Assembly: GCA_949295265.1 (NCBI GenBank)
Contig: CASFKR010000001.1
Span: 1-50,741 of the forward strand
From: an uncultured Verrucomicrobiota bacterium
Lineage (GTDB): Bacteria; Verrucomicrobiota; Kiritimatiellia; RFP12; UBA3636
Reading direction: 5' to 3'
DNA: 50,741 bases
Shown: piece after piece, positions 3,352-28,614 of the stretch
Position numbering within the stretch: the first letter of the stretch is position 1
How the letters are laid out: each line of letters opens with the position of its first letter
The notes under the pieces: generated by a model
What the model saw: the letters and a program-made list of their open reading frames with translations, nothing else
Told to the model about the DNA's origin: nothing
The model's database searches: none
Position numbers and translations under genes: made by a program

Positions 3352-3380
3352 TTGTCAAATCCGAGTGGATTCGGTATAAA
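3352..3380 (+). promoter_or_regulatory. Probable sigma70 promoter of the HU gene
   Basis: TTGTCA (3352-3357), 17-nt spacer, TATAAA (3375-3380), about 80 nt upstream of the HU ATG. Confidence 0.6.
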
Positions 3381-3459
3381 CGGGGTGAAGAACATTCCGT
3401 CATAAGAATCGTTTTTTCAACCCCTTCACTCCATTGTCCCTCCAACGAAGGTTCGTATT

Positions 3460-9934: not shown

Positions 9935-10488
9935 CGCGGCATCCGCCGCCGGGCGCCGCGGCGCAGGGATCGTCCCCGCACAGGGTATTGCGCTTTCCGG
10001 AGGGAGGCGGCCGCCGCCGCCGCAAACCGGATGCATTCGATGCAGCCGATTCGGCTTTTGTAGTATTCCGGGGTGCGTTCTCCGGGCATACCGCCGTGTT
10101 CTTTGGCGGCTTGAGCCGATTCGACGCGCAACGCCAGCAGTTCGCGGCAGACGCATGAGCCGAACCGCTCTTTGAAGGCGGCGCAGAAGGTCTGCACCGC
10201 TTCGTAGGTGGCTTTTTTCGCTTCGGGTTTCAGCGCATCGCCGCTTCCGCAGGCGATGCCCGCGAGCATGGCAAATCCGGTCACGGAGCCGCAGACTTCG
10301 CGGGTGCGCCCGACGCCGCCGCCCAGGCCCAGCGAGAGATCGGCCACGAGTGCGGTGGGGAGCCCGAGCCGCTCCGCATGCGTGAGGACAACCGCCTGCG
10401 AACAGGTTGCACCTTTCCGGAAGAGGGCTTCGGCGGTGTCGGCGGCGGCACGGGCTTCCGGGGTTTCAAGAAGAGAGGGGTCAAACAT
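9925..10488 (-). CDS. C_GCAxxG_C_C family putative redox-active protein
   Basis: GATCSQAVV, LGGGVG...VCGSVTG, FGSCVCRELL and CIECI. Start taken at MFDPS (10488). Confidence 0.85.
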   Translation of the reverse strand: MFDPSLLETPEARAAADTAEALFRKGATCSQAVVLTHAERLGLPTALVADLSLGLGGGVGRTREVCGSVTGFAMLAGIACGSGDALKPEAKKATYEAVQTFCAAFKERFGSCVCRELLALRVESAQAAKEHGGMPGERTPEYYKSRIGCIECIRFAAAAAASLRKAQYPVRGRSLRRGARRRMPRQS

Positions 10489-10578
10489 GGCTGGAGGCTG
10501 GCTGGGGATGAGAAAAAAGTAAAAAAAAAACGGGAAAATGAGCGGCGGGACGGGGACGGAACCCATGGTCGGTTGCGC

Positions 10579-11781
10579 TCAGGTAGGAGACGAATCGTCC
10601 CCCGGGTCTGCCGATTGAGAAATCGGTTTCTCCGGTTTTACGAGGGCTTGGGAGAGAAAGGCGTGGCCTTCTGCGTACAGTGTTTGCAGGATCTCTGTCC
10701 GGCTCGCCGGGAGCGGCTCCAGCAGGAGGCGGAAATCCGGTGTTTCGCCGGGACGGATGAGGCGTACAGACAGCCCGAACCGGTCCAGCAGCGTTGTCAG
10801 GCGTCCGGCGGAATCTTCTTCCGGCTTTGCAAAGGCGAGGAATGGTCTGCCGAAGAGCAGGGAAAAGACCACGGCATGGAAGGAGTCGGTGACGATGGCG
10901 TCGGCATCGCGGATGGCACACAGCCACGCTTCCACGGAGGGTAGGGCGGGGAAGAGTCCCGGCGCGGGATTGTTCGGTGTATGCAGCGTGGTTGACTGAA
11001 GCGTCAGCCCCGCTGCGCGCAAGCCGTCGAGACAAGTGCGGAGCGCGGGCGTGTTGTCCGTTCGGGCGGACAGGAAACAATGCGTCAGCCGGAGCACCCC
11101 GGGGGTGCGGGGACGTGCGTCCGACGCGGGCAGGAGGCGCTCCCAGGTTTCCGGCGGCAGAAACAGCGTTGGATCCGGGCAAAGCGAGGGGCGGCGCCCG
11201 AAGAGCCGTTCGCAGATGGCGACGCCTTCCGATTCGCGCACGGAGACGGCGTCGAAGGCCTCGAGCCAGCTCCGGTAGCGGCTGAGCCGGGAACCGAAGT
11301 CGGGGTCGCTGTTTCCGAAGGAGGCGGCAACGGCAATCCTGCAGACGGGCGTCCCGTTGAGAAAACTCCCAAAGTAGAGGGGACGCGTCCAGGCCGGGTT
11401 CCAGATTTGGTCGGACCCGAAGATGACTGCGTCGACGGGATGCTGCCGAATCCAGCGCTGAAGATCGCGTTCACTTGCCACGGGGGCGGTCCGTGCGAGA
11501 TGCGCCCGGATCCACGGGCGGATCCGGCGTTCCGCCAGGGCTTCGGAGAGCCCCGGCAGAAGCGGAATGGCTTCACGGCGTCCGCGCAACCGTGCCGCGC
11601 AGCGGAGCCAGAGACGGCGCCCGAACGCCAGCGGCCAGAGTATCCACGGGAGCCGCTGAAAGCGCATGCGCAGCGCAATCGGCTCGTGCCCGAGCGCACG
11701 CAGCGTCTGCTGGAGTGCCCAGAGCTGCAGGATCCCGCCGATATTCGAATGCAGCGGAAGGGTGAGAATGGCGATTTTCAT
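10579..11781 (-). CDS. Polysaccharide pyruvyl transferase family protein
   Basis: MKIAILTL...NIGGILQ, FGSDQIWN, AASFG, VSVRE, DPTLFL and TDSFH are the family motifs. Confidence 0.9.
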   Translation of the reverse strand: MKIAILTLPLHSNIGGILQLWALQQTLRALGHEPIALRMRFQRLPWILWPLAFGRRLWLRCAARLRGRREAIPLLPGLSEALAERRIRPWIRAHLARTAPVASERDLQRWIRQHPVDAVIFGSDQIWNPAWTRPLYFGSFLNGTPVCRIAVAASFGNSDPDFGSRLSRYRSWLEAFDAVSVRESEGVAICERLFGRRPSLCPDPTLFLPPETWERLLPASDARPRTPGVLRLTHCFLSARTDNTPALRTCLDGLRAAGLTLQSTTLHTPNNPAPGLFPALPSVEAWLCAIRDADAIVTDSFHAVVFSLLFGRPFLAFAKPEEDSAGRLTTLLDRFGLSVRLIRPGETPDFRLLLEPLPASRTEILQTLYAEGHAFLSQALVKPEKPISQSADPGDDSSPT

Positions 11782-11885
11782 CGCGGGAATGCGCGTTGAG
11801 CCCAGGCCTGTCCGGAAGTGCGAAAAACGGTCGGGCTGGACAGACAGCCCGACCGTTGGAGGAAAAAGCGTCCGGCCGGGCGCCG

Positions 11886-13892
11886 TCAATAGGCGACGGT
11901 GGAGACGGCTTTGCAGAGGAATACGACGCCGACGGAGAGAATCGAGATGAGACCGGTGCCGACGAAGAAGCCGGAGGAGACGACCGGAATCATCTTGCGC
12001 CACTCACGCCCGAATTTGCGCTCGAAGTAGCACTTGCCGATCAGGGCGCCGATGAAGTTGGGGAGCACGGTGTGCGGCGCGGTCTGACCCAGACCGCGAA
12101 CGACGCCGAAGAACAGCATCGTCGGGGCGCCGAACCAGCCGAGCAGACCCATCACCGCGCCGGCGGAGCCGAAGCCCGCGAGGAACCGGCCGAGCCCGAG
12201 CGCTTCCTTGAACTGGCTGTATTCGCCGAGCGTGGAGGAGTAAATCAGGCACGTGTTTTTCGCCGTCAAATCCCAGATCTGCTCCGTGTAGGGGTAAACC
12301 GCCGAAGGAATTTCAGCCAGCGACCAGATGAAGGAGGAGAAGAACAGCGACGAGCAGATGATGATGGGGAAGAGCAGAATCTGCGCTTTCCAGATGGAGC
12401 CGAATTTGCACCCGAGAAGCTCGGCCTGCTTGTACGAAACCACCTGAATGCCGTAGTTGGACTTCGGAATCGGGATGAACCAGATTTTGACGCCCGTGTA
12501 GCCGGAGAGGATGAACGAAATTTCGGTGATGAACGGAATTTCGATAACCTGACCGGCCAGACCTTCCAGACGGGCCGTCACGTACGAAATCAGCGGCGTA
12601 TAGATGAAGGCGAAGAAGAAGAGGACGACCAGAACACCGGGATGCCAGTCGGTCAGCCAGCCGCAGACGACGATGTAGAGCACGCAGGAAATGGCGTACG
12701 TCACGAAGACCCACGGCACGGGAATGTGACCGCGCATCTTGGAGAGGCGCAGCAGGCGTTCCGCATGGTCGTGCGCCGTCTTTTCGCGCTTGCCGAGGCG
12801 CAGGGTGCGGAAGGCGACCCAGAGACCGAAGAAGGCGATGGCCAGCGAGATGCCGATCTGGAAGGAGAAGTAGAAGTCGACGTTGTTGGCGAAGAGCGTC
12901 AGAACCGTGGTGTCGCCCTGTTCCCACGTCGGCATCTTGCCGAAGTGGTACAGAATCGGGTTCATGACGAAGGTGAAGATCAGACCGACGAAGGAGCCGA
13001 CCATCGACCAGAAGGGGAGCACCATGCCGAGGATGATGTTGCCGAGGTCGAAGGAGAGACCGGTCGCCGTTGCAGGCAGGAACGACTGCGTGTACGGGGT
13101 GAAGTCCGCGAAGGGAATCTGGAAGACCATCAGCGTGCTGTCGAACAGTGCACCGGTGATGGTGGGCAGCGCCATGTACATCAGACCGAAAATCATGCCG
13201 ATGCCGGACCCGACGCAGAACATGCGCCAGCGGACGGAGGCGCCGGCGCTCTTGACGGAGCCCTCCACCTGTTCGGCGATGGCGACGATACCCTGAGCGC
13301 CGACGGGCGCCATCGGGAAGGGGAGCTGCTCGATATCCGAGGTGAGACGGAAAAGCCCGTAGCCGAGGATGGCGGAGTTGAGGCGGCCCATGATTTCACG
13401 GAACAGCATCAGCCCGATGAACGGGAGCCACGCCTTGGAGAGGAACGTGCGCGGGAGGCTGTCGAGATTCTTCGGGGCAACCCACACCGGAATGTCGGCG
13501 GCAACGCCCGTCGCCACCGCCGCATCGGAACGCACGAGGAACTGCGTGAAGAGCGGCGTATTCCAGACGTTGGTCGCCATGACCATGCCGGCCATGTAGA
13601 AGAGGATGAAGAGCTGGGCGCGCGAAAGTTTGGCGTTCGCGCGTTTGGCCACTTCGACGAAGAGCAGAACGGTCACCCACTGGGCGGCACCGCCGATGCC
13701 GGCACCGGCGACGAGTTCCATGTAGAGCGCACCGGGCACCATGACCAGTGCGACGAAGAGAGTGCCGAGCAGCGAGGTCAGGTTGAAGCCTTCCTCGAAG
13801 GAATCGGGCACGGTAAGCAGGGCCCGAAACTCTTCCAGTTCGGCGTCCTCCGTTTTAACGCGGCGGCGAAGCAGATGTTTGAGGGAGATCAT
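11886..13892 (-). CDS. OPT-superfamily-like polytopic membrane protein (putative peptide transporter)
   Basis: About 670 aa with many hydrophobic helices and an EQLPFPMA motif like the OPT ExLxFP segment. Start taken at MISLKH. Confidence 0.75.
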   Translation of the reverse strand: MISLKHLLRRRVKTEDAELEEFRALLTVPDSFEEGFNLTSLLGTLFVALVMVPGALYMELVAGAGIGGAAQWVTVLLFVEVAKRANAKLSRAQLFILFYMAGMVMATNVWNTPLFTQFLVRSDAAVATGVAADIPVWVAPKNLDSLPRTFLSKAWLPFIGLMLFREIMGRLNSAILGYGLFRLTSDIEQLPFPMAPVGAQGIVAIAEQVEGSVKSAGASVRWRMFCVGSGIGMIFGLMYMALPTITGALFDSTLMVFQIPFADFTPYTQSFLPATATGLSFDLGNIILGMVLPFWSMVGSFVGLIFTFVMNPILYHFGKMPTWEQGDTTVLTLFANNVDFYFSFQIGISLAIAFFGLWVAFRTLRLGKREKTAHDHAERLLRLSKMRGHIPVPWVFVTYAISCVLYIVVCGWLTDWHPGVLVVLFFFAFIYTPLISYVTARLEGLAGQVIEIPFITEISFILSGYTGVKIWFIPIPKSNYGIQVVSYKQAELLGCKFGSIWKAQILLFPIIICSSLFFSSFIWSLAEIPSAVYPYTEQIWDLTAKNTCLIYSSTLGEYSQFKEALGLGRFLAGFGSAGAVMGLLGWFGAPTMLFFGVVRGLGQTAPHTVLPNFIGALIGKCYFERKFGREWRKMIPVVSSGFFVGTGLISILSVGVVFLCKAVSTVAY

Positions 13893-13928
13893 TGCGTGGA
13901 ATGACGGGTGTCGAAGGTGCGGGAAAGG

Positions 13929-13945
13929 GTGGCAGGGGCGTGGCA
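13929..13945 (+). repeat. 17-bp recurrent motif copy (exact), intergenic
   Basis: GTGGCAGGGGCGTGGCA between the genes at 11886..13892 and 13980..19187. Confidence 0.75.
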
Positions 13946-13979
13946 CGGGTGCGGGCCGGGTCACGCCCGATGCGTGGAC

Positions 13980-16900
13980 TTAGCGGCTCTTTTTGCCGTG
14001 CTTGGGATTCCGGCGGGCGCGGGGGTTGGTACCGCCCTGGTTGGGGGCGGGCCTGGGCGCCTCGGGGGCCTTGGGTTCTGCAGCGGGGGCGGGGGCGACC
14101 GGAGCGGCAGGCTGCGCGGAGGCGCCGCCCGCCTGCTGATTGCGCAGGTGCGCCTCGTAGGCGGCCCCGGCACCCTGCCCGGCGATGTCCTCGAGCGTCG
14201 AGGCGCGGTAGTGCTCCACCGTCGCAATCGGGAGCGAACGCCAGAGCAGGAACTGCTCGCGCAGCTCAGCGGCAAAGGCGCGGTTGGAGCGCACCCACGA
14301 GTCCGGCGTGCCGCCGATGCGCGTGAGGTCGACCACCACTTCGTCGATGCCCTTGATTTCGAACTCCTGCGAGTACATCCGGAACCGCTGGAAGATGCCC
14401 AGGTCGAACGGAGCCAGCGAGATGTTGGCTTCGATGCCGATGTGCTCCTTGCCGTCGTTGCCGCACGGTTCCTTGAAGATGCGCACGTCCCGGGCCGCAA
14501 AGGAGCCCAGCGTGGCGTCCGCATGGTTGTTGAAGTGCTCGCGGATGAACGAGAGGATGCCGGCAAAGTCGACGGACGAAACGGTGAACGGGAAGACGAA
14601 CTCAAGTTTGTTTCCCTTCGGCGAGGGCATCTTCCACTTGCGGGCGACGCCCGGGTTGGCCGATTTCGAGGCGCGGAGCGCCGGGAAAATCGTCGAGAGC
14701 ATCACCACCGCCATCACAATCAGAATCGTGCAGACGGAGGTCAGCGAGGAGAAGTTCATCTCCGGCGGCGTGATGAGACCGCGCGAGCCGAGGAACTTGA
14801 AGAACTTCGCGACGAGCTGGCTCACGAGGTAGCCGCCCATGCCGCCGATGACGGAGTAGACCGCCGATTCCGCGAAGAAGAGCGCACCCACGTCAACCGG
14901 TGCCAGACCCAGCGCCGAGTATGTGAAGATTTCCTTTTCGCGGGCCACAATCGAGCCCATCAGCGACGAGAAGATAATCAGACCGCCCAGCAGGAGCGGG
15001 ACGATGACGTCCGAGAAGCCGGAGCCCTGCACCGCCTGCGTGAAGAAGAGGCTGTAGGCGCCTTCGGGCGTCTTCACGTGGACCGTGCCCTGGAACGCCG
15101 GGGCGAGCTCCACGCCGATGTCGTACAGCGAGAGGTCTTCCTGCCCCTCTTTGGGGTACATGGCGATGAAGTTGCAGACGTTGTGCCACCCGAAGTACCG
15201 GCGCAGGTCATCCATGCGGGCGATGGCCACGACGTCCGGCGTGAACCATTCGAAGGTGCCGGTGGGCATTTCCTCGAGCGATTCAATGGAGGCGCCGCCC
15301 GTCGCGGACGAGCCGGAGTTGGAGAGCGTCGCCTGAAAGTCCGGCGGAACCCCGCGCAGATCGTCAATCGTCGAAATCTGCTGGAGCGCGAAGGCGTCGA
15401 AGAAGCCGGCGAAGGTGAACGGCACGCCGTTGAGGCGGATTTCATCGCCCTTGGCAATCTGCGTCAGTTCGTTCGTGACGGCAGGCGGCAGGAAGAGCGG
15501 TGGCAGGGGCGTGGCAGCGGTGGCCAGCTCCGGCACGACTTTGCGGAAGCCGGCGGAGTGCTTGATCTCGGTTTCGTCCAGCCCCATGACGGCGGACATC
15601 TGGATGGACTCGCCGGATTTGGGCAGGAAGAGGACGCGTTCGGGGTTGATGCTGGTGTCGCCCGTGTCGTTGCTGCGCGTCGGGATGCGGAAGAGACCGC
15701 CGCGGCGGCAGATGTCGAAGCGGTCGCCGTAGAGCGCATTGAGCGAGTCGATGAAGCCGCTGTCGATGTGCAGGAAGGAGAGGCGGTGCAGCTCGATGCG
15801 GTTTTCATCGGTGCCGCGGCCGAGATACGAATCCACGACGCCCTGCTGCGAAGTGAACGAGGCGAACACGAGAATTGTGAACGTGAGCAGCACGACCGTG
15901 ATGCACGTGAGGAACGTCTTCAGCGGCCGGTTGCGCATGCCCGCGATGCCGATGAGGATGGCGGAGAGCGTGGTTGACGATTCGTTGACAACGCCGTGCA
16001 CCGTCGAGGCCAGGCCCTGCATCGCGCGGATTTCCTGTTTGATCTTGCCCATCATGATGCCCGACGTGATGCACGCAAGCATGATGATGACGAAGGCGAG
16101 GAAGATGACGATGGGGGCAGACGCCAGCGAGAAGGCCGGGTGCGTGAAGAAGAGGATGGCGAACGTGGCCAGGAAGAAGCCGATGAAGCCCATGAGCTGC
16201 TTGTAAATCGACGGGAAGCCGAAGATGAGGCGCTCCATCGCGAAGGCGAACGGGATGTTCAGCAGCAGCAGTACGACGACGGCCTGCACGAGGTCTTCCG
16301 TGACGCCGCGCAGCGGGCGGTAGATGCGGTTTTCGATGCAGTTCGCGAAGATGTGGTGCGCTTCCGCGAGACTCCACTTCTTTTCGGCGATGGCCGCGGC
16401 GGCTTCTTCGATGTGGTCCTTGGAGTCCGCATGGAACTTCTCGAGGTCGTCGCGGACGATGTTGCGTTCGCGGAGCACGGCGAGGCGGGCTTCGTTGAGC
16501 AGGTAGGCGTCGTTGGCGCCCTGAGCGATGTTGTTCGCGTGGAGGCGCGCATCGGTGTCGAGTTTCACGCCGACGCCCATGGCGGCCTTGAGGCGGTCCA
16601 TGCCGGGCGCATTGGTGACGGAGCCGAGGAGCATGTCGCCATTGCCGCCGATGATCTTAATCGGGTCCTGGCGGTCGGCGAAGAATTCCTTGTAGCCCTC
16701 GAATTCGTACACCACGGTGGACGCCGTCTTGTGCGGCGCATCTTTGGAGGCCACAAGCGTCTTGGGCTCGTAGAGATCGCCGCCGATGGGGTCGGGCTTG
16801 TAGCCGTCGCCGAAGGAGAGACCGCCGTAGGCGTAGAAGAGGTGAATCGGCGTGGCCACGATGCCGTAGGCGTCGGCCGCGACCGTCACGCGGTCCAGGG

Positions 16901-19187
16901 CGCCCTCCTCATTGTAGCCCACCGCCATGTTGGTGAAGAGCCACGAGGTGTAGGCGACGCTGCGCCCGATGTACGGCATGTAGATGCGCCCGTTGGCGAG
17001 GATGCGCGAGCGCGGCTGGGCGGACTGCCCGATCATCGGTTCCGGACGGCGGAACGAGGTGATGTACACGATGGCGCGGCGCGGGACGCCTTCGCTGTCG
17101 GTGGAGCCGGCCGCATAGTTGAGGTAGCGCACGCCCGTGTTCTCGTAGTAGGTGAGGCGCGGTTCGAGGCGCTGCGCGGAGAACACGTTGCGGAGCGAAA
17201 TTTCCATCGAGTTGGCGAGCTCGCCGCAGAATTCCGCCATCTGGCTGCTGAGCGGCGAGAGATCCACGAAATCGGCAAACGGCAGATTGTCGTGGAGGAG
17301 GGGCTCGCCGACGGAGGTCATCTGGAAGCCCGCCAGGCCGAGCGCCGCCGAGAGGACGGACGGCACGAGGCGCTGATACTGGTAGGAGAGGGAGTACGGC
17401 TTGTAGGTCGCGTTGAGGGCGGGCTCGTAGAGCAGGGCGGTCCAGGGTTCCTCCGCCGGAGGCTCGCCGTTGGGGCCGGGCATGTGCGCGGCGGCGATGC
17501 CGCCCCGGCCGGTGGCGCCGTAGTAGATGTTGCGGAAGGCGCTCAGGTGGCGGCCGTAGGAGCCCGTGTTGTGATCGCCGTAGCGGTAGAGGCCCGCGGC
17601 GTTGATCATCGTGAACATCCACGGGGCCTTCGCCGAGGCGAAATCAAAGTCGAAATGCCCGACGATGGAGCGCCCTTCGAAGATGTCGGCGAGCTTCATC
17701 CACGAGGCGTTGTTGTCGATCATGCGCTCGAGCTCACCGCGCCGCGTGTGGAGACGCTCGAGCACATTGCCGAGCATGCGCGCGTACATGGCGGGCACAT
17801 CGGCGACCGGGTCGGACTCCAGCCCGGCGTCCGGCAGGTATTTGCCCTTGACGAGCTGTTCGCGCAGGAGGTTGGAGGCCTCGCGCTGCGCCTGCAGATG
17901 GTCGATCTGCACGGAGAGTTCGGCGATGCGGGCGGTGGCGGCCTGCTTTTCGGCTTCGTCGCTGAACTGCGGGAGGCGGCTCTGCAGGGCGGTGCGCTCT
18001 TCGCGCAGATCGCCGATGGGCTCGCGCAGGCCGTTGGCCAGCGCCACGAGTTCGCGCTTGAGGCGGTTCTGCAGATTGCGAGCCAGCGGGCCGCGGGCAT
18101 CGATGATGTTGTTCGCGTCTGCAAACGCGATGAGTTCGCGGATGGACACCAGCTCCTCGGCGTATTTCTCGCCGCGTTTGGCGAGGTCGAGGTTGTTGAT
18201 GTTCTTGTTCGACATGTCAATCGTGTGGTAGAAGAACCGGGCGCCTTCGAGGCCCGCATACTTCGAGCCGAAGAAGACGACGATGACACGGCGGTTGAGG
18301 GGACGGCCCGAGCGCGCGAGCGAGACGGCGGTCTGCGTCAGCAGCGCCACGTTGGCGGCGGCGCGCAGTTCCGGCGAGTAATCGGGCGTGAAGCCGTAGG
18401 TGTCGAGCGTGGCGGAGAGGATGAGCACTTCCTCGGAATCGAGATTGCCTTTCCAGCCGGGTTTGCTGGGGAGCTCGACCCAGAGGTTTTTGCCGGGGAC
18501 GTCGCGGATGACGCTGCGGGCGTCGAGGACGGCCTCGCGGGTGCCGTCGGCGGTCAGGAGCCCGGCGCGTTCGGCATCGGCGCGGTCGATGTAGACGCGC
18601 GGCACCAGCGTGAGACTCGTGAAGCCGACGGCCGACATGCGCGTGTTGGCCAGCGTGGCGTCGCCGACGAGGATGACGGCGCGGGCGCCGTGCGTCATGA
18701 CGTCGCGGATGTCCGCCTCCGGAAGCGTGGCGTCGAGGACGGCAATCTTGCCCGTGAGGTCTTTGCCCTCAAAGGTCTGGATGCGCCCGTTGCCGACAAA
18801 GATGGCCGGACCGCGGATCGGCTCGGGCACGACGAACGTGGCCGGACCGTTGTCGATCATCAGCACGCCTTCGACCGGCTCGCCGCCGTAGGTCAGCGAG
18901 AGCCGTTCCGTCTCCTGACTGAGCGAGTCGAACGTCTGGTACTGCGGCTTGAGTCCGGCCTTCGCCAGTTCGTTGCTGACGACATCGAAGGCCTTGGAAA
19001 GATTTTCAGACCCGACGCGGCGGTGCGGGAAACGGGAAATGCCGTTCCAGACGCGACCGTAGACGGAGTTGTCGGGAAGAACAGGAATCTCCGCGGCTTC
19101 CTGTGCCTGTACGGGGCAGAGCAGGGCGGCCAGAGCGAGCGCGGAAAATACGGCGGAGCGGACGCGGGGGATACGGGTGTTATTCAT
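13980..19187 (-). CDS. Giant (1735-aa) fusion: signal peptide, degenerate M28 peptidase/PA domain, coiled coil and FtsX/MacB-type permease
   Basis: Signal peptide ending LCPVQA. PA-like segment GPAIFVGNG...DLTGKIAVL...GARAVILV. M28-like core EVLILSATLD...RRVIVVFFGSKYAGLEGA. MacB-like TM1 RPLKTFLTCITVVLLTF. FtsX motif SIVAREKEIFTYSALG...FFAES. Confidence 0.85.
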   Translation of the reverse strand: MNNTRIPRVRSAVFSALALAALLCPVQAQEAAEIPVLPDNSVYGRVWNGISRFPHRRVGSENLSKAFDVVSNELAKAGLKPQYQTFDSLSQETERLSLTYGGEPVEGVLMIDNGPATFVVPEPIRGPAIFVGNGRIQTFEGKDLTGKIAVLDATLPEADIRDVMTHGARAVILVGDATLANTRMSAVGFTSLTLVPRVYIDRADAERAGLLTADGTREAVLDARSVIRDVPGKNLWVELPSKPGWKGNLDSEEVLILSATLDTYGFTPDYSPELRAAANVALLTQTAVSLARSGRPLNRRVIVVFFGSKYAGLEGARFFYHTIDMSNKNINNLDLAKRGEKYAEELVSIRELIAFADANNIIDARGPLARNLQNRLKRELVALANGLREPIGDLREERTALQSRLPQFSDEAEKQAATARIAELSVQIDHLQAQREASNLLREQLVKGKYLPDAGLESDPVADVPAMYARMLGNVLERLHTRRGELERMIDNNASWMKLADIFEGRSIVGHFDFDFASAKAPWMFTMINAAGLYRYGDHNTGSYGRHLSAFRNIYYGATGRGGIAAAHMPGPNGEPPAEEPWTALLYEPALNATYKPYSLSYQYQRLVPSVLSAALGLAGFQMTSVGEPLLHDNLPFADFVDLSPLSSQMAEFCGELANSMEISLRNVFSAQRLEPRLTYYENTGVRYLNYAAGSTDSEGVPRRAIVYITSFRRPEPMIGQSAQPRSRILANGRIYMPYIGRSVAYTSWLFTNMAVGYNEEGALDRVTVAADAYGIVATPIHLFYAYGGLSFGDGYKPDPIGGDLYEPKTLVASKDAPHKTASTVVYEFEGYKEFFADRQDPIKIIGGNGDMLLGSVTNAPGMDRLKAAMGVGVKLDTDARLHANNIAQGANDAYLLNEARLAVLRERNIVRDDLEKFHADSKDHIEEAAAAIAEKKWSLAEAHHIFANCIENRIYRPLRGVTEDLVQAVVVLLLLNIPFAFAMERLIFGFPSIYKQLMGFIGFFLATFAILFFTHPAFSLASAPIVIFLAFVIIMLACITSGIMMGKIKQEIRAMQGLASTVHGVVNESSTTLSAILIGIAGMRNRPLKTFLTCITVVLLTFTILVFASFTSQQGVVDSYLGRGTDENRIELHRLSFLHIDSGFIDSLNALYGDRFDICRRGGLFRIPTRSNDTGDTSINPERVLFLPKSGESIQMSAVMGLDETEIKHSAGFRKVVPELATAATPLPPLFLPPAVTNELTQIAKGDEIRLNGVPFTFAGFFDAFALQQISTIDDLRGVPPDFQATLSNSGSSATGGASIESLEEMPTGTFEWFTPDVVAIARMDDLRRYFGWHNVCNFIAMYPKEGQEDLSLYDIGVELAPAFQGTVHVKTPEGAYSLFFTQAVQGSGFSDVIVPLLLGGLIIFSSLMGSIVAREKEIFTYSALGLAPVDVGALFFAESAVYSVIGGMGGYLVSQLVAKFFKFLGSRGLITPPEMNFSSLTSVCTILIVMAVVMLSTIFPALRASKSANPGVARKWKMPSPKGNKLEFVFPFTVSSVDFAGILSFIREHFNNHADATLGSFAARDVRIFKEPCGNDGKEHIGIEANISLAPFDLGIFQRFRMYSQEFEIKGIDEVVVDLTRIGGTPDSWVRSNRAFAAELREQFLLWRSLPIATVEHYRASTLEDIAGQGAGAAYEAHLRNQQAGGASAQPAAPVAPAPAAEPKAPEAPRPAPNQGGTNPRARRNPKHGKKSR
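15500..15516 (+). repeat. 17-bp recurrent motif copy (exact)
   Basis: Inside the giant permease, read as AATPLP. Confidence 0.75.
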
Positions 19188-19953
19188 CTTCTTCCTCGAT
19201 GCCCAGAGAATCTTTCTCGACCTTGACGTGGCGGGACTCGGCGATGCGGGCAATGCGGCCGTCGCTGATCCACACCATGCGGGAGGATACGGAGAGCATA
19301 TTGGGGTCGTGCGTCGCGCAAATTACGGTGACGCCGTCATTCTTGTTCAAATCGTGGAGCAGCCAGTGAATCTCCTTGCCGGTCTTGAGGTCGAGGTTGC
19401 CGGTCGGCTCGTCGCACAGGAGAATCGAGGGGTTGTTGGCAAGGGAGCGGGCGATGGCCACGCGCTGCATCTGACCGCCGGACATCTCTTTGGGGCGGTG
19501 ATTCCAGCGGGAGGCGAGCCCGACGCGGTCCAGCAGCGCCATGCCGCGGGCGCGCGCTTCGTCCGAGGAGACGCCGGCGAAGACCATCGGCAGGGTGACG
19601 TTTTCCAGCGCGGTCATGACCGTGTTGAGGTTGAACTGCTGGAAGACGTAGCCGATCTTGCGGCAGCGCAGGAAGGCGAGTTCCTCGGCGTTGAGCTGCG
19701 CCATGTCCACGCCGTCGATGAAGACGCGTCCCGACGTCGGGGTGTCGAGCCCGCCCACCATGTTGAAGAAGGTGGACTTGCCGGAGCCGGAGGGACCCAT
19801 GACGCAGATGTATTCGCCGCGATAGATGTTGAGCGTGATGCCGGCCAGCGCATGGACGGGCTCGGTGCCGCGCCAGAAGGTGCGCTTGATGTCGTGGACG
19901 GATACAAGGACTTCCTTGCCGACCGCGTATTCTGCTTCGTTAAAGGTAATCAT
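19180..19953 (-). CDS. ABC transporter ATP-binding protein, LolD/MacB/FtsE type
   Basis: GPSGSGKST, GYVFQQFNL, MSGGQMQRVAIARSL, CDEPTGNLD and ATHD. Overlaps the start of the giant gene. Confidence 0.95.
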   Translation of the reverse strand: MITFNEAEYAVGKEVLVSVHDIKRTFWRGTEPVHALAGITLNIYRGEYICVMGPSGSGKSTFFNMVGGLDTPTSGRVFIDGVDMAQLNAEELAFLRCRKIGYVFQQFNLNTVMTALENVTLPMVFAGVSSDEARARGMALLDRVGLASRWNHRPKEMSGGQMQRVAIARSLANNPSILLCDEPTGNLDLKTGKEIHWLLHDLNKNDGVTVICATHDPNMLSVSSRMVWISDGRIARIAESRHVKVEKDSLGIEEEDE

Positions 19954-19957: not shown

Positions 19958-21487
19958 TTATTCGACTCTCATGGCTTCCATGGGTGCCATACGGGAGGCG
20001 GACCAGGAAGGCTGGATGGAGGCCAGAGCCGCAAGCAGGATGCCGGCAGCCAGCGAGAAAAGGGCGGAAAAGATGATGTCGACCCCCGGGAAATAGGTCC
20101 AGAGATGCGCGCCGTACAGGATGGAGCAGCGGACGACCGAGATGAGGAAGCCGACCACGACGCCGATGACGCCGCCGGCCGCACCCTGCATCGCCGCTTC
20201 CATCATGAACTGCGAGAGGATGTACGCATCGGTCGCGCCCAGGCACTTCATCGTCGCAATTTCGCGATAGCGTTCGGTGATGGACATGAGCATCGCGTTG
20301 GTGATGCCGACCATGCAGACGAGGAACGAGATGAAGAGCAGGAAGAGCTGGCGGCCGGTCAGCCCGAGGAACGAGGGAATGGCGCGGGTGACCATGGCGA
20401 GCCGCTGGTTGAGCAAGGAGAGGCGGCTGACGCGCTCATACCGGTCGCTCATCTGCTGGAGCGTATCGCTGCTGAAAGAGCCTTCGAGGAGACGCACCGC
20501 GCGGCGGTCGGTGATGAACGCCATTTTTTCCTCTGCGGAGGAGCGCTTCGTTTCGTTGAACTGGCGTGCCCATTCCGTGCGGAAGCTGTTGCGGTTGAGG
20601 TGTTCGATGAGGTCCGAGTAGGTGTTGGACTCCGCCAGCTGTTCGCGCATGAGCTTCACATCCGCCTCGCTGAGCGTGAAGCCCAGCTCCGTCATCGAGC
20701 GGCGCCAGGCGTCGACGGCATCCGGTGCCGCCGCAGGAATCCAGCGGGCGTCGGAAATCTCCGTCTGACCGCCTTTGGCGAGGTCGGTCGCTTCGTTGGC
20801 GCGGGAAACGGCCGCATTCCAGCGGCGGTTGAAGTCGGTGAGTTCCGTCTTGTAGGCCGGATAGGCGGCCAGGAAGGCGTCGAGGGACTCAATCTTGCCG
20901 GGCACGCGAATCTCGATCTTGATCTTGAGCTGCTCGTGGAAGGAGTCCGAGGTCTCGAGAATGTAGTTGAGGGCGGCACGGCCGGACCGCTTGCCGATCA
21001 GGTTGAGGCGGTGCCCGGTGGGAAGCCCGTCGAGCCAGGTCGTGTAGGTGGCTTCCTGGAGCGCCAGCTGCGCCAGGCGCGAAACTTCCTCCACGGGAAG
21101 CCCGGTGACGTGCGCGGCTTCCTCGATTTCCGCCTGCCCCGCAGCGCGTTTGTGCGCATCCTTGCCGTTCACCTTGCGGGCGGCATCCGCGAGGCGGCGG
21201 ACCGTGGTGTTTTCCTGGGCGTGGGAAAGCAGGCGCGTCAGCGTTGTCTGCGCAAAACGCGCGTGCGCATCTTCGTCCATCACGCCCCCGGCAACGGAGC
21301 GCTGGAAGATGCTCTCGGAGAGCAGGAACATGAAGAAGGCGACGGCCAGCACAACGACGGCCAGCGTCAGCATGGAGCGGAAAAGCCGATGCTTGACGCC
21401 GCGCACGCACAATGTCCAGGTTTCACGCAGGGACATCGTGTGCTGCTTCTGGACATCAATTTCGCGGTAAACGGAGGAATTGCTCAT
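19958..21487 (-). CDS. FtsX/MacB-like ABC permease
   Basis: N-terminal TM RSMLTLAVVVLAVAFFM, a ~330-aa extracytoplasmic region, GITNAMLMSITERYREIATMKCLGA and C-terminal ASRMAPMEAMRVE. Confidence 0.92.
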   Translation of the reverse strand: MSNSSVYREIDVQKQHTMSLRETWTLCVRGVKHRLFRSMLTLAVVVLAVAFFMFLLSESIFQRSVAGGVMDEDAHARFAQTTLTRLLSHAQENTTVRRLADAARKVNGKDAHKRAAGQAEIEEAAHVTGLPVEEVSRLAQLALQEATYTTWLDGLPTGHRLNLIGKRSGRAALNYILETSDSFHEQLKIKIEIRVPGKIESLDAFLAAYPAYKTELTDFNRRWNAAVSRANEATDLAKGGQTEISDARWIPAAAPDAVDAWRRSMTELGFTLSEADVKLMREQLAESNTYSDLIEHLNRNSFRTEWARQFNETKRSSAEEKMAFITDRRAVRLLEGSFSSDTLQQMSDRYERVSRLSLLNQRLAMVTRAIPSFLGLTGRQLFLLFISFLVCMVGITNAMLMSITERYREIATMKCLGATDAYILSQFMMEAAMQGAAGGVIGVVVGFLISVVRCSILYGAHLWTYFPGVDIIFSALFSLAAGILLAALASIQPSWSASRMAPMEAMRVE

Positions 21488-21529: not shown

Positions 21530-23734
21530 TTAGCCGGGCATGTACCAGACGCGGTTGGGCGAGGGCGACCCGACAATCAGGTAGTAGGCGAAGTCCACGA
21601 TAATCGTGAGACCGATCAGCAGGATTTCACCGGCAATGATGCCGACGAACAGCGGCTTGCACCGCTGATAGACGCCACCACCGCCAAACCGGACAACGAG
21701 AACCTTGATGAACCACCCGAAGAAGAACGAAGCCGCCGCGCAGCCCGCCGGATAGGAACCCCAGATGAGGAACAGAATCGGGTGAATCGGGAATTTCGCG
21801 AAGCGGAACCGGATCAGGGATACGGCCATCACCGCGAGGAGCCCGTAGAAGAAGAAGTGTGTATGGATGGCATTGCCCGCAATGAGCTGGAGGCGGGCAA
21901 GCGGACCGGACTCGAGCGAGGTCTCGAAGGTGCCGGCCGCCTTCATGTCCATGAAGTGGCGCGCCGTCTGGTCGAGCCCCGTGACCGGCGGGTTGTTGGA
22001 CGCCCAGCTGTCATTCATCGGGTTGTAGTTGTAGGTCGACCATGCGGCGGCGAACCATCCGATGACCATCGCAAGGAGCGCGGCCGCGCAAATCCAGCCG
22101 AAGACCTTTTTGAGGTTGATTTTGTGGTCTTCCGCAATCTTGGCGCCCGTCCCGACGTAGGCGATGAGCGCCTCACGGGGGTCCTGCACAAAGATCGAGT
22201 TGCCGCCCCAGTTGAGGAAGGTGAGGGCATGCGGACCGATGGCGGCCGGACCCAGCAGGGAGACGAGCAGCGTGCCCGGCGTCCAGGCGGGCTGCAGGAA
22301 CGGGATGCCCGTTTCGCACACGATGCGGGAGAACACCGTGTAGAGCATGAAGAGGATGAGCGAGAAGAGCAGCGCAATCAGCCACGACTGGCAAATCCAC
22401 GAGAGGATGCAGACGAAGGCGATGAAGGTCACGATGAGGGTGCGTGCCGCCAGCACGGAGACCTCATCGGGCGCCGCCAGTTCTTCGGCGGCGGAATCTT
22501 CTTCGCCCGCCTTGGCCTTCCGGCGGATTTTCAGCCGGAGGGCGCGCGCAAACACGGCCAGGTAATATGAGCGGCCCGTGTAAAGCAGGATCAGCATGAA
22601 GCCCATGTACGCGCCGCCGCGCATGGCTTCCATCGTCTGCCCCTGCATCAGCGAACCGGTCGTCTGGTAGAACAGAATCGTGAAGATGGCCAGCAGCACC
22701 TGGGAGAGGCCGACGGTCAGCGCAATTTCGGAGCTGACGAAGTAGGCAATGCCGATGAAGGTGAAGTAAATCGTGGCACCCGAAAGCGACCAGTAATTGA
22801 TGGCTTTCTTGATGATGGGCATGTGCGTGTGCAGCGGCAGGTTCCAGCCCTTGAGGTTGGGCAGGAATTCCTGCATCGCAGGGAGGCTCTCCGGGTACCA
22901 TTTGGCGAGGTAATCGATGAGGAGCAGCAGGAAAACCGGAATGACGCCCCACCAGAACAGGCGGTTGCGGAAGATGTCCGGCACCCCGTGGTGCGGGGTC
23001 GTCATGCGCGCGAACTGGCCGGTCACCTGCGCAATCGGGTACGCCAGCTGTTCGTGGGAAGCCCACTGACGGTGTACGAGGAACTGGGTCGAAATCATGA
23101 CGAACACAAACATCGTCAGAATCGGCCCCCAAATCAGCATCGGCTTAATCCAGGCGCGCAGCGGGAGCTCCAGAATCGAGAGCGTCTCCGTGCCGCGGGC
23201 CATGCCGGTGAAGAAGCCGCGGTATACCTCTTCGTACGCCGGGGTCGAAAGGGCCATCGGATCGCCCGGCCACGGGGACGGGAAGAGCTCCGGCCGCAGA
23301 TATTCGGTGAGCAGACCGTGGAGTTCCCAGTTCTGGTGGTTCGGGAGGAAGTACCACGGCATCATGATCTGCGTATGGAAATACCGGTACAGACCCGAAG
23401 TCGGCGCCCAGCAGGCGACCAGCGTCATGATGATGACGAACGCAAGCTCACGCGCGGAAAGCGCCAGCCGGTCCGCCAGCCGGTGCTCTTTCTTGAGAAG
23501 GCGGTCCAGCAGATTCCAGAAACCGTTCCAGCCAAGACCGACCAGGAAGAAGTAGAAGAAGGGACCGGGGGGGATCTGGTGCCCGATCATGTACGTCCCT
23601 TGAAGGACCGTATCATGGAATTTGGCCGTTCCGGCAATAAACAGGATCCCGAGAAGGCTGAAAATCAGCGAACGGGGGCTGATGAACCTGTCTTTTTTCG
23701 GTTGGGCATCAGGAGTCTGTTCCGTAGTCGTCAT
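21530..23734 (-). CDS. DUF6785/DUF6784-like polytopic membrane protein (OPT-related), paralog A
   Basis: 734 aa with many TMs, RQWASHEQLAYPI, PIHPILF and RFGGGGVYQRCKPLFVG. The family assignment is from memory. Confidence 0.8.
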   Translation of the reverse strand: MTTTEQTPDAQPKKDRFISPRSLIFSLLGILFIAGTAKFHDTVLQGTYMIGHQIPPGPFFYFFLVGLGWNGFWNLLDRLLKKEHRLADRLALSARELAFVIIMTLVACWAPTSGLYRYFHTQIMMPWYFLPNHQNWELHGLLTEYLRPELFPSPWPGDPMALSTPAYEEVYRGFFTGMARGTETLSILELPLRAWIKPMLIWGPILTMFVFVMISTQFLVHRQWASHEQLAYPIAQVTGQFARMTTPHHGVPDIFRNRLFWWGVIPVFLLLLIDYLAKWYPESLPAMQEFLPNLKGWNLPLHTHMPIIKKAINYWSLSGATIYFTFIGIAYFVSSEIALTVGLSQVLLAIFTILFYQTTGSLMQGQTMEAMRGGAYMGFMLILLYTGRSYYLAVFARALRLKIRRKAKAGEEDSAAEELAAPDEVSVLAARTLIVTFIAFVCILSWICQSWLIALLFSLILFMLYTVFSRIVCETGIPFLQPAWTPGTLLVSLLGPAAIGPHALTFLNWGGNSIFVQDPREALIAYVGTGAKIAEDHKINLKKVFGWICAAALLAMVIGWFAAAWSTYNYNPMNDSWASNNPPVTGLDQTARHFMDMKAAGTFETSLESGPLARLQLIAGNAIHTHFFFYGLLAVMAVSLIRFRFAKFPIHPILFLIWGSYPAGCAAASFFFGWFIKVLVVRFGGGGVYQRCKPLFVGIIAGEILLIGLTIIVDFAYYLIVGSPSPNRVWYMPG

Positions 23735-24195: not shown

Positions 24196-26382
24196 TCAAC
24201 CGGGCATGAACCAGATGCGGACGGGTGACTGCGATCCGGTTGCCAGGTAGTATGCGAAGTCCATCGCAATCGTGATGCCGATGACGAGAATCTCGCCGGC
24301 AATCAAGCCCACAAAGAGGGGTTTGCATTTCTGGTAGACCCCGCCGCCGCCGAAGCGGACCACCAGCTGCTTGATGAACCACCCGATCAGGAAGGAGGCC
24401 CAGGCGCAGTTGGAGGGGTAGGAGCCCCAGATCAGGAAGAGAATCGGATGGATCGGGAAACCCGCAAACCGGAACCGGAGCAGCGAGACGGCCAGCACCG
24501 CCAAAAAGCCGTACAGGAAGAAATGCTGCTGCAGGGAACTGCCCGCAATCATGCCGAGGCGCTCCACCGGGTTGGTCGCCAGCGATGTTTCAAACGTGTT
24601 CGCCGCCTTCATGTCCGAGAAGAAGCGCGCCGCCTGATTGAGCTCGGCGCGCGGCGGACTCCCGGCGGCATAGCCGTCGTTCATCGGACTGTAATTGTAG
24701 GTCGACCAGAATGCGGCAAACCAGCCGATAATCAGCGCCAGAATGGCGATTCCGCAAATCCAGACGAAGATTTTCTTCAGGTTGAGCCGGTTGTCATCGG
24801 CGAGTTTCACGCCGTTGGCCACATAGCCGATGAGCGATTCGCGCGGATCGGGCGTGAAGATGCCGTTGCCGGCCCAGCAGAAGAACGTCAGGGCATGCGG
24901 ACCGATGGCGGCCGGACCCAGCAGATACAGCAGTATGTTGGTCGGCTGCCAGGCTGGCGCCAGGAAGGGAATGCCCGATTCGCACAGAATGCGGGAGAGG
25001 ACCGTGTAGAGCAGGAAGAGCAGCAGCGAGTAGAAGATGGCCATCAGCCACGACTGGCACATCCACGAGAGCAGGCAGACGAAGCAGACGAACGCAACAA
25101 GCAGGGTGCGCGCCGCCAGAACGGAGACGTCGTCCGGTTCCGCCAGCGTTTCCGTTTCATCGTCCCCGGCCGGAACTCGCCGTTTCCGCCGGAGATAGAA
25201 CGCCCGCGCCAGAACCGCGCGGTAGTACGTACGCCCCGTGTAGAGCAGAATCAGGGAGTAGCCGAAATAGGCGCCGCCCCGCATGCATTCATGCGCCGAC
25301 CACGGCAGGAGAATGCCGTTGACCTGGTAGAACAGAATCGAGAAAACGGTCATCAGAATGCAGGAAAGCCCGACCGTGAGCGAGATTTCCGAACTGACAA
25401 AGTAGGCGATGCCGACAAAGGTAAAGTAAATGGCCCACCCCTGAATCGACCAGTAGTTGACCGACTTTTTGAGAATCGGTATGTGGTTCGTCATCGGAAG
25501 CCAGCCGCCTTTGATGTTCGGCAGGAAACTGGACAGGCTCGGAACCGCTTCCGGATACCATTTCGACAGGTATTCGATGAACAGCAGCGTGAAAACCGGG
25601 ATGACGCCCCACCAGAACAGCCGGTTGCGGAAGATGTCCGGCAGTGTATGGTGCCCCGAGGTCATGCGCGCAAACTGCCCCGTCACCTGCACAATCGGGT
25701 AGGCAAGCTGTTCGTGGGAAGCCCACTGGCGGTGCACGAGGAACTGGATGGAGGTGAGCACCAGCGCGAAGAGCGTCAGAATCGGACCCCAGATGAGCAT
25801 GGGCTGCACCCAGGCGCGGAGCGGCATCTCCAGAATGGAAATGGCTTCCCGCCCGGTGGCCAAGCCAGTGAAGAAGCCGCGGTAAACCTGCTCATACGCG
25901 CGCGTGTCGATGTTTTCCGCGCCGGGCCACGGCGTGGGGAAGAGTTCCGGGCGCAGATATTCGGTGAGCAGCGAGTGTATCTCCCAGTTGTGCTGGTTGG
26001 GGAGGTAATACCACGGCATCATGATCTGCGTGAAGAAGTACCGGAACATGCCCGAGGTCGGGGTCCAGCACGAAACCAGCGTCACGATGATGACAAACGC
26101 CATCTCCTTTGAGGAGAGTGCAAACAAATCCGCCAGACGGTGTCGCTTGCGGAGTATCCGGTCCAGCAGATTCCAGAAGCCGTTCCACCCCAGTCCGATC
26201 AGGAAGAAGTAGAAAAACGCACCCGCCGGCAACTGGTTGCCGACGATGTACGTGCCTTGCAGCACCATGTCGTGGAAGCGCGCCGTCCCGGCAATGAAGA
26301 AGACGCCCAGCAGGCCGAAAATGAGCGAGCGAAGGCTCAGAAAGCGATTTGATTTTGCCCGGAAGCCAACATCCGTTTCCAT
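24196..26382 (-). CDS. DUF6785/DUF6784-like polytopic membrane protein (OPT-related), paralog B
   Basis: 728 aa, colinear with 21530..23734 and sharing long identical blocks (PDIFRNRLFWWGVIPVF, LLGPAAIGPHALTF). Confidence 0.8.
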   Translation of the reverse strand: METDVGFRAKSNRFLSLRSLIFGLLGVFFIAGTARFHDMVLQGTYIVGNQLPAGAFFYFFLIGLGWNGFWNLLDRILRKRHRLADLFALSSKEMAFVIIVTLVSCWTPTSGMFRYFFTQIMMPWYYLPNQHNWEIHSLLTEYLRPELFPTPWPGAENIDTRAYEQVYRGFFTGLATGREAISILEMPLRAWVQPMLIWGPILTLFALVLTSIQFLVHRQWASHEQLAYPIVQVTGQFARMTSGHHTLPDIFRNRLFWWGVIPVFTLLFIEYLSKWYPEAVPSLSSFLPNIKGGWLPMTNHIPILKKSVNYWSIQGWAIYFTFVGIAYFVSSEISLTVGLSCILMTVFSILFYQVNGILLPWSAHECMRGGAYFGYSLILLYTGRTYYRAVLARAFYLRRKRRVPAGDDETETLAEPDDVSVLAARTLLVAFVCFVCLLSWMCQSWLMAIFYSLLLFLLYTVLSRILCESGIPFLAPAWQPTNILLYLLGPAAIGPHALTFFCWAGNGIFTPDPRESLIGYVANGVKLADDNRLNLKKIFVWICGIAILALIIGWFAAFWSTYNYSPMNDGYAAGSPPRAELNQAARFFSDMKAANTFETSLATNPVERLGMIAGSSLQQHFFLYGFLAVLAVSLLRFRFAGFPIHPILFLIWGSYPSNCAWASFLIGWFIKQLVVRFGGGGVYQKCKPLFVGLIAGEILVIGITIAMDFAYYLATGSQSPVRIWFMPG

Positions 26383-28434: not shown

Positions 28435-28614
28435 CGTGGAACCAGCCTTTCGGCGAAGTGTGCCGCCGAACCCGGAGGCGAAGCGGAAGAAACGGGGTTG
28501 ACCTGCGGCGTACGGTGCCAAAGCGTCCCCTGTCGCGTAGAGGGTACCATAAAAACGGAACTTCGTCCGCGGAAGGATACCAGGTGCGCCCGGTTGCCGG
28601 GCGAGGCTGCGCGG

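Follow-up and report, generated by a model that had tools for sequence, protein, structure and literature searches.

What does an aminopeptidase-like domain do on the outside of an ATP-binding cassette (ABC) permease once the residues that hold its metals are gone? The question is raised by one gene of an uncultured Verrucomicrobiota bacterium (Kiritimatiellia; RFP12; UBA3636), which we studied in a stretch of 50,741 nucleotides (NCBI GenBank assembly GCA_949295265.1, contig CASFKR010000001.1, positions 1 to 50,741 of the forward strand), referred to here as the window. The gene encodes a giant FtsX-family permease, here called GIANT, and an earlier note made from the letters alone had read it as an inactive M28-fold receptor fused to an ABC permease. 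The structural part of that reading holds: an M28 fold with a probable PA domain, in which, by alignment, the di-zinc ligands and the catalytic Glu are replaced is covalently joined to a MacB/FtsX-type permease, and an ATPase gene adjoins. GIANT is best explained as a permease subunit of a type VII (MacB/FtsX-type) ABC mechanotransducer. The features that had been missed include about 300 further ectodomain residues that form a beta-rich domain and a stalk of three helices after the M28 fold, and the membership of the gene in a conserved multigene system with OPT-like permeases.

The minus-strand open frame from 19253 to 13980 is free of stop codons on translation of the window. The start codon is likely the ATG at 19187, which overlaps the stop codon of the gene for ABC ATPase 1 (ATGAATAA); a GAGGA-like site precedes it. 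The closest database relative has the same length (1735 residues) and 99% identity, and 65 homologues of full-length type were found. Every string quoted in the earlier note (SATLD, ELRAAAN, FFGSKYAGLEGA, REERTALQSRL, and IAELSVQIDHLQAQREASN) is present in the translation. The whole gene and its two ends are as follows.

13980..19187, minus strand: GIANT (giant FtsX-family permease), whole gene, 1735 amino acids (aa) plus stop (open reading frame and translation)
19101..19187, minus strand: signal peptide, residues 1-29 (hydropathy and sequence; hydrophobic core 9-27)
13983..14180, minus strand: low-complexity tail rich in Ala, Pro, Gln, and Lys, residues ~1670-1735 (unconserved, mean identity 0.03)

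From the N terminus, GIANT consists of a signal peptide, the M28 fold with its probable PA domain, a beta-rich domain, a three-helix stalk, and three extra transmembrane (TM) helices, followed by a four-TM MacB/FtsX-type core with a Porter/Sabre-like periplasmic domain and then a cytoplasmic alpha/beta domain. The signal peptide and the seven TM helices together place the head in the periplasm and the C-terminal domain in the cytoplasm. Signal peptide cleavage would fall after ...VQA and before QE. Mean identity to the query peaks at 0.70-0.79 in the cytoplasmic domain and in the helices of both the extra TM segment and the FtsX core and is lowest in a helical insertion within the head (0.27).

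The head is a homologue of M28 peptidases, and its likeness to the PA-containing members is more than chance. Its M28 and PA parts lie at the following positions.

18888..19073, minus strand: M28-like N-terminal part, residues ~39-100 (HMMER alignments to 2ek8; holds the R56-x-x-G59-S motif)
18453..18875, minus strand: probable PA domain inserted in the M28 fold, residues ~105-245, borders approximate (alignment to the PA region of 2ek8 and BSAP)
18198..18440, minus strand: M28-like middle part, residues ~250-330 (SATLD, SPELRAAAN, and GSKY motifs; Pfam M28 matches at 250-338)
17193..17669, minus strand: M28-like C-terminal part, residues ~507-665 (VIA alignments; GHFDFDF at 510-516 and LLHDNLP at 630-636)

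At the sequence level, Pfam Peptidase_M28 (PF04389; MEROPS family M28) gave a borderline score against whole GIANT (19.7 bits; cut-off, 21.3), 21.5 bits on the ectodomain alone, and 23.9 bits in a six-frame search of the genome. The match to GIANT is limited to profile positions 11-98 of 193, and the same profile matches 21 of 47 family members at E<=0.01. Compared with the Protein Data Bank (PDB), the single sequence matched the Aneurinibacillus AM-1 aminopeptidase (2ek8; E 6.3e-4, residues 59-347). A family profile built from 42 sequences (the query and 41 of the 65 homologues, with near-duplicates and partial proteins left out) matched 2ek8 at E 4.5e-17 and Bacillus subtilis BSAP/YwaD (6hc6) at E 2.1e-11; these matches run through the PA domain and halfway into the catalytic domain. 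For residues 495-680, a profile of 25 sequences matched no PDB sequence at E<=10. The Pfam PA profile (PF02225) did not match GIANT itself at E<=1 and matched 8 of 47 relatives (best E 4.9e-4). R56 is invariant in the family alignments.

The structure prediction and Foldseek comparison that the earlier note had proposed show the M28 fold. An AlphaFold model of the ectodomain (residues 30-965; mean predicted local distance difference test [pLDDT] 91.7; predicted template modeling score 0.91) placed PA-containing M28 aminopeptidases at the top of a Foldseek search (2ek8, E 9.8e-18; 87 matches at E<=1e-3), followed by transferrin receptor 1 (TfR1; E 4.4e-14) and glutamate carboxypeptidase II (GCPII; ~E 4e-12). 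By VIA-align, glutaminyl cyclases were the top structural matches (4f9u, Z 21.3, 271 of 298 residues aligned; 7d1b, Z 21.1), next to the Aeromonas aminopeptidase 1amp (Z 21.0, root mean square deviation [rmsd] 2.8, 252/291 aligned) and BSAP (Z 21.0, 367/407). PA-containing enzymes aligned over 367-382 residues. TfR1 (3kas) reached Z 19.8 with 380 of 633 residues aligned and so ranks no better than active enzymes. The alignments to M28 enzymes begin at model residue 10 (protein residue 39) and end at model residue 635 (protein residue 664), which indicates that the entire catalytic-domain fold is present, beyond its first half. A search independent of Foldseek across 48,161 representative chains gave the same order, with M28 enzymes and cyclases at Z ~21 and M20/M42 enzymes at Z 14-17. 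A human glycosylphosphatidylinositol (GPI)-transamidase chain (7w72_A) appeared in that search at Z 13.9.

The order of elements is that of PA-containing M28 peptidases, as the note had claimed (family profile against 2ek8 and Z 21.0 for the model). The PA-domain aminopeptidases 2ek8, BSAP (6hc6), and Pseudomonas aeruginosa PaAP (8acg) share this order, with the PA domain inserted in the M28 fold. Unlike them, GIANT has its zinc ligands and catalytic Glu replaced, carries a helical insertion of 165-324 residues in the catalytic domain, and continues into ~1000 further residues, including the seven TM helices.

The metal site was counted in 64 aligned sequences, i.e., the query and 63 of 80 related loci; the other 17 were left out because their N-terminal part was off the contig or gave no N-terminal match. 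As the reference, we took the co-catalytic zinc ligands of AAP to be residues 97, 117, 152, 179, and 256 (His, bridging Asp, Glu, Asp, and His). In two HMMER alignments, the SHHDS motif of 2ek8 falls on S-A-T260-L-D262-T of GIANT, with Thr in place of the ligand His and the helper Asp retained; P272 lines up with the bridging Asp of GANDDASG, and K309-Y310 with the EE of FGAEENG. These are the substitutions that the note had singled out (SATLD, ELRAAAN, and SKY), and the alignment of homologues that it had suggested extends them to the family. The column equivalent to AAP H97 holds His in 3 of the 64 sequences. Asp is never found in the bridging column (P272), where 57 sequences have Pro. Glu is absent from both the general-base column (K309; His in 25, Gln in 24, Arg in 6, and others) and the ligand-Glu column (Y310; Ala in 29 and Tyr in 25). 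The last two ligands could be placed by motif order only, because the sequence alignments do not cover them: the candidate place of the fourth, GHFDFDF, has Asp at 515 in 40/64 sequences and at 513 in 21/64, and that of the fifth, LLHDNLP, has His at 632 in 12/64 and Arg in 27/64. As a control, an ordinary M28 gene of the same genome keeps SHYD, GANDG, DGEEA, IDMVGD, and WHTEQD. Judged from these alignments, the GIANT head keeps neither the five-ligand zinc set nor the general-base Glu of the "EE" pair. The loss is thus ancient and family-wide, extending by record titles over Kiritimatiellia, Lentisphaerae, other Verrucomicrobiota, Planctomycetota, Polyangiales, and others.

The old site seems to have been remodeled and not simply to have decayed, because new residues in it are near-invariant and because its surroundings are conserved. 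R275 and N279 are each kept in 63/64 sequences, D262 in 59/64, H511 in 57/64, and P636 in 64/64; position 633 is acidic (Asp or Glu) in 60/64. Within the head, conservation is highest at residues 250-330 (0.54 versus 0.27-0.45 in the other parts). R275 probably sits in the old metal site.

The rest of the ectodomain consists of three elements.

17679..18185, minus strand: helical insertion, residues ~335-503 (DSSP of the model; four long helices that separate the former "EE" helix from the next core strand)
16650..17126, minus strand: beta-rich part, residues ~688-846 (DSSP of the model)
16299..16532, minus strand: three long stalk helices, residues ~886-963, running into the membrane (DSSP; model helices 857-878, 884-905, and 909-934)

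The coiled-coil stretch that the earlier note had reported is real, as the helices of the model confirm (335-358, 367-407, 411-447, and 464-503 in protein numbering), but it is inserted within the M28 domain and does not follow it. Y320 and H511 lie 165-324 residues apart in every one of the 64 sequences, compared with ~50 in the canonical M28 protein of the same genome. The beta-rich part and the stalk were not covered by the matches shown in three structure searches of the ectodomain model. In a second model (residues 940-1680; pLDDT 74.3, with low values of 55-70 in the membrane helices), the last stalk helix continues into the first TM helix.

The membrane and cytoplasmic parts follow.

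16047..16292, minus strand: three extra TM helices, residues ~966-1047 (hydropathy and low-pLDDT model helices; mean identity 0.75)
15852..16046, minus strand: cytoplasmic loop with a short helix and TM1 of the FtsX core, residues ~1048-1112 (hydropathy and model; mean identity 0.79)
15018..15851, minus strand: periplasmic domain of the FtsX core, Porter/Sabre-like, residues ~1113-1390 (278 residues between TM1 and TM2; pLDDT ~90)
14664..15011, minus strand: FtsX domain with TM2 to TM4, residues ~1393-1508 (Pfam FtsX [PF02687] match at 1398-1508)
14232..14615, minus strand: cytoplasmic alpha/beta domain (b-a-b-b-b-b-a), residues ~1525-1652 (pLDDT 80-87; mean identity 0.70)

Three extra TM helices before the FtsX core and a cytoplasmic domain after it had been proposed from the sequence, and hydropathy and the second model agree with both, the membrane helices being modeled at low pLDDT. 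Pfam FtsX matched GIANT at E 2.5e-10 (40.9 bits; cut-off, 25.5), and the core matched MacB (5lil) by sequence at E 2.4e-4. Foldseek of the second model found LolC (7mdx, E 2.9e-7) and MacB (5lil, E 2.9e-6), and also HrtB and YbbP, among 25 matches at E<=1e-3. The periplasmic domain, described here with the Porter and Sabre subdomains as defined in PMC5985334, aligned with MacB 3ftj at Z 10.5 (rmsd 3.8; 174 of 214 residues aligned to model residues 182-434), with YknZ at Z 10.2, and with LolC at Z 9.8 (range for YknZ, LolC, and LolE, Z 9.3-10.2). GIANT therefore has the FtsX domain, the periplasmic Porter/Sabre-like domain, and the adjoining ATPase gene of a type VII ABC permease. The cytoplasmic domain gave middling fold matches (Bet v 1-like 1vjh, Z 7.8; the C-terminal domain of Aha1, Z 7.5-7.7; KA1, Z 7.4-7.5); we put these assignments aside, as Z 7.4-7.8 is in the range that the tool itself calls common. 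Pfam and NCBIfam scans of this domain returned no match.

The genes around GIANT form a conserved cluster. On the same strand, two DUF6785/DUF6784 genes, a 509-aa FtsX permease gene, and the ATPase 1 gene precede GIANT, and a gene for a 692-aa OPT-like permease follows.

24196..26382, minus strand: DUF6785/DUF6784 polytopic membrane protein, copy A (728 aa; tandem paralogue of copy B, 68-69% identity)
21530..23734, minus strand: DUF6785/DUF6784 polytopic membrane protein, copy B (734 aa; Pfam E 2e-69 and 4.8e-18)
19958..21487, minus strand: second, ordinary FtsX/MacB-type permease (509 aa; Pfam FtsX E 1.5e-17; upstream in 43/46 loci)
19180..19953, minus strand: ABC ATPase 1 of LolD/MacB/FtsE type (257 aa; Pfam ABC_tran E 1.8e-32)
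11886..13964, minus strand: OPT-like permease (692 aa; Pfam OPT E 2.1e-8, 33.8 bits versus a cut-off of 25.8, partial coverage)

Neighbors were counted only among related loci with enough flanking sequence. The tightest-linked partner is the OPT-like gene, directly downstream of GIANT in 64 of 65 loci (47-92% identity of the window's copy to its counterparts). ATPase 1 is directly upstream in 49/52 loci and matches the NCBIfam models LolD (E 2.7e-65), MacB (E 4.3e-64), and FtsE (E 1.3e-56), though each score falls short of the equivalog cut-off; as its gene overlaps that of GIANT, the two are probably translationally coupled, and ATPase 1 is the putative cognate MacB/LolD/FtsE-type ATPase of GIANT. 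A DUF6785 gene lies within 8 kb upstream of GIANT in 34/40 loci. DUF6785/DUF6784 is mostly single-copy in related loci, with two copies also at L021 and L022. A second ATPase gene (ATPase 2) follows the OPT-like gene in 51/56 loci, and genes for a PqqD-like protein (~135 aa) and for a ~300-aa protein are each present in 20/28 loci.

ATPase 2 and the PqqD-like and ~300-aa proteins are not encoded in the window, and the genome keeps all three on other contigs, each several kilobases inside its contig.

C102:6145-6861: ATPase 2 (79% identical to that of a relative)
C114:3238-3603: PqqD-like protein (41% identical to that of a relative)
C4:55601-56464: ~300-aa protein (39% identical to that of a relative)

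The system is thus split over at least four places in this genome. The PqqD matches are weak (E 1e-7 to 3e-5 in related loci; 18.3 bits, below the cut-off, in the genome itself). On C114, the PqqD-like gene (3223-3612, plus strand) directly follows a Peptidase_M3 oligopeptidase gene (976-3180, plus strand) and precedes an SBF-family transporter gene; this arrangement could point once more to peptide handling or be due to chance. Examples of the ~300-aa protein are encoded at L041:6281-7171, at L077:6314-7252, and, from the genome itself, at L085:5587-6483 (minus strand). Its gene accompanies that of the PqqD-like protein. It has a few invariant Trp, Pro, and Arg positions and a Cys-Cys pair near the C terminus in four of eight aligned sequences; Pfam, NCBIfam, and PDB sequence (profile) searches gave no match. 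PDB sequence searches likewise gave no match for the OPT-like protein and DUF6785 copy B, and NCBIfam had no family for the OPT-like or DUF6785 proteins. Kinship between these two was put aside, as an hhalign probability of 25% (E 7.7e-4) and a single R..E.LP[FY]P motif are too weak. A complex prediction for GIANT residues 945-1118 with the OPT-like permease scored 0.16 and 0.04 against a mark of 0.32, without controls, and speaks neither for nor against binding.

The family is widespread. A scan with one genome per species gave at least 574 GIANT-encoding stretches among 600 pattern matches, of which 80 loci were kept, and by record titles its members occur in Kiritimatiellia, Lentisphaerae/Victivallales, other Verrucomicrobiota, Planctomycetota, Polyangiales/Myxococcales, Fibrobacterota, and Chitinivibrionales. 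Searched with a 47-sequence profile of the head, 1.84 billion representatives yielded 1052 clusters (50% identity) at E<=1e-30; among the 150 clusters listed, most are 1550-1900 residues long, and shorter ones may be fragments. A full-text search, with most subscription journals outside its coverage, found no literature on the GIANT family or on DUF6785/DUF6784.

Dead enzymes that serve as binding modules are well known in eukaryotes, with the transferrin receptor and nicastrin as examples. Like GIANT with its probable PA domain, TfR1 and nicastrin hold a PA domain and an M28 fold without a working metal site outside the membrane, and the parallel that the earlier note had drawn stands for fold and logic. 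It does not extend to close kinship, as nicastrin and TfR match the family profile at E 0.12 and E 0.3. A single family member of 47 matches the Pfam "Nicastrin large lobe" (E 5.5e-6), and nicastrin was not among the matches shown in the three structure searches, which is uninformative either way. Ligand binding is known for TfR and nicastrin, which, unlike GIANT, have one TM helix and no ABC module; the helices of TfR and GCPII form a C-terminal domain, whereas those of GIANT are inserted within the protease-like domain.

On the motor side, GIANT resembles the type VII systems MacAB-TolC, LolCDE, FtsEX-EnvC, HrtBA, and YbbAP-TesA in its FtsX domain, its Porter/Sabre-like domain, and its LolD/MacB/FtsE-type ATPase, and two different FtsX-type permease genes in one cluster recall LolC/LolE. 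GIANT extends this design by three TM helices, an N-terminal ectodomain of 930 residues, and a cytoplasmic domain at the C terminus, and its cluster adds the OPT-like and DUF6785/6784 partners and, in most loci (51/56), the second ATPase. PMC5985334 describes type VII systems as moving their stalk helices and periplasmic domains by ATP turnover in the cytoplasm and as doing work outside the membrane, not carrying a substrate across it. For FtsEX-EnvC, PMC7668044 describes ATP-driven motion that passes through a coiled coil and frees a LytM domain, which binds amidases. Because of this extracytoplasmic work and this coiled-coil transmission, we read GIANT as the motor effector subunit of its system.

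With a probability of roughly 60%, the GIANT head is a non-catalytic binding or gating module of a type VII ABC mechanotransducer, tied to the OPT-like permeases. Driven by ATP turnover on the cytoplasmic side, the FtsX stalk helices and the Porter/Sabre-like domain would shift, and the stalk of three helices and the four-helix insertion would carry this motion to the head. Tethered to the membrane through the helical stalk and the three extra TM helices, the head would act on a periplasmic ligand, holding, releasing, or gating it for the accompanying OPT-like and DUF6785/6784 membrane proteins and may in this sense act as a receptor. The ligand may be a peptide, since the system brings an aminopeptidase fold together with a permease of the OPT family and a PqqD-like protein. 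This is the weakest step of the proposal, and it leaves the direction of traffic either way. PqqD is a protein of the peptide-chaperone type. A tentative extension, which we consider doubtful, combines up to eight genes (GIANT, the second FtsX permease, two ATPases, the OPT-like, DUF6785/6784, and PqqD-like proteins, and the ~300-aa protein) into an envelope machine of a new kind, in which a type VII ABC motor would drive the dead aminopeptidase as a "hand" that captures or gates peptides for OPT-fold permeases, with a peptide-chaperone-like protein at the cytoplasmic end.

Several points weigh against a binding or gating head. The head is the fast-evolving part of the protein (across the ten most distant sequences, its identity is 0.16-0.39 and that of the membrane and cytoplasmic parts 0.48-0.61), and such divergence fits a specific receptor and a mere spacer equally well. 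The peptide theme comes from family names only, with a partial OPT match (E 2.1e-8) and weak PqqD matches behind it. The alignments to 2ek8 disagree in register after P272, and the filling of the old metal site is read from these alignments; the conserved polar residues D262, H511, and D/E633 lie in segments lining the old site, where they could form a new single-metal site. Finally, the occurrence of the head is patchy: this query, at E<=1e-10, detected it in 29 of 301 genomes from the phylum, a count that may miss divergent copies. In those 29 genomes, it is always part of a frame of 1457-1890 residues, and this occurrence and the constant size point to an accessory system with a fixed architecture.

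EnvC offers another way to use such a head. A head of this kind would switch on or restrain another periplasmic enzyme when the ABC motor moves, without binding any cargo. The shared design speaks for it: a type VII core, long helices, and a peptidase-fold domain occur in both. In FtsEX-EnvC, motion passes through a coiled coil to the LytM domain (PMC7668044); the helical insertion of the GIANT head is present in 64/64 sequences. EnvC differs in that it is a soluble protein of its own, has a LytM (M23) fold, and acts on amidases that are known, whereas the GIANT head has an M28 fold and is fused to the permease. The LytM domain of EnvC is itself noncatalytic. We nevertheless hold a regulator of this type unlikely, as no conserved hydrolase gene was found in the cluster among related loci, the constant partners are polytopic membrane proteins and not periplasmic enzymes, and occurrence in 29/301 genomes is unlike that of a core cell wall function. 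A housekeeping role was put aside on the same count, which comes from this one query and may be too low for divergent copies.

The head could also be a structural spacer or assembly scaffold that binds no ligand and sets the height, oligomeric state, or periplasmic position of the complex, much as the protease-like domain has a part in the TfR dimer. The transferrin receptor has the same fold (Z 19.8), the GIANT head diverges fast, and its most conserved positions are also positions of the fold core. A spacer, however, need not keep the polar residues that are new to the fold and stand in former active-site motifs, namely, R275 and N279 (63/64 each) and H511 (57/64), and this makes a spacer improbable in our view.

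That the head is still an enzyme, with a rebuilt site that uses one metal or none for peptidase, cyclase, or other hydrolytic activity, is very unlikely. M28-fold glutaminyl cyclases use a single zinc, and they were the top structural matches of the model (4f9u, Z 21.3; 7d1b, Z 21.1); D262, H511, and acidic residue 633 (59/64, 57/64, and 60/64) are candidate ligands, and the old general-base column holds His in 25/64 and Gln in 24/64 sequences. The columns that we take to be the metal-ligand positions of the cyclases (bridging Asp, ligand Glu, and second His) are not kept, however (0/64, 0/64, and 12/64). D262, H511, and D/E633 are at most putative neighbors, and H511, four residues before D515 on one strand, probably faces away from the old site. 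An efflux pump of the MacAB-TolC type was put aside, as genes for a MacA-type adaptor or an outer membrane channel were found neither in the window nor in the flanks of 12 loci scanned. TonB-dependent receptor genes lay downstream in only 2 of these 12 loci.

Some features of the window touch the system at its edge or not at all. A polysaccharide pyruvyl transferase gene (10579-12003, minus strand) and a C_GCAxxG_C_C family gene (9925-10566, minus strand) follow the OPT-like gene; of the two, tblastn in related loci found only GCAxxG, and only at the closest relative (L001), and both seem to be outside the GIANT system. A frame of 1822 aa at 28252-33720 (plus strand) has no Pfam match, lies opposite NAD synthase and GlmS-type genes, and most likely stays open by chance, the DNA being rich in G+C. 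The G+C content falls to 0.55-0.57 at 36001-42000, compared with ~0.65 elsewhere, in a region that contains tRNA-Leu(taa) (39413-39498). A tRNA-Ser(gga) lies at 50449-50538, close to the end of the window.

In GIANT, the fold of eukaryotic dead-enzyme binding modules is hard-wired to a bacterial mechanotransducing ABC permease, and this arrangement is that of a large family, with 1052 clusters and at least 574 species-level genome matches. Once worked out, the cargo would bring the functional types of type VII ABC systems to five and would give a function to the OPT-like and DUF6785/6784 proteins of gut, sediment, and polysaccharide-degrading bacteria. If the peptide machine were to prove true, these bacteria would have a form of ATP-assisted peptide trafficking unlike that of ordinary ABC importers, OPT symporters, or MacAB-type pumps.

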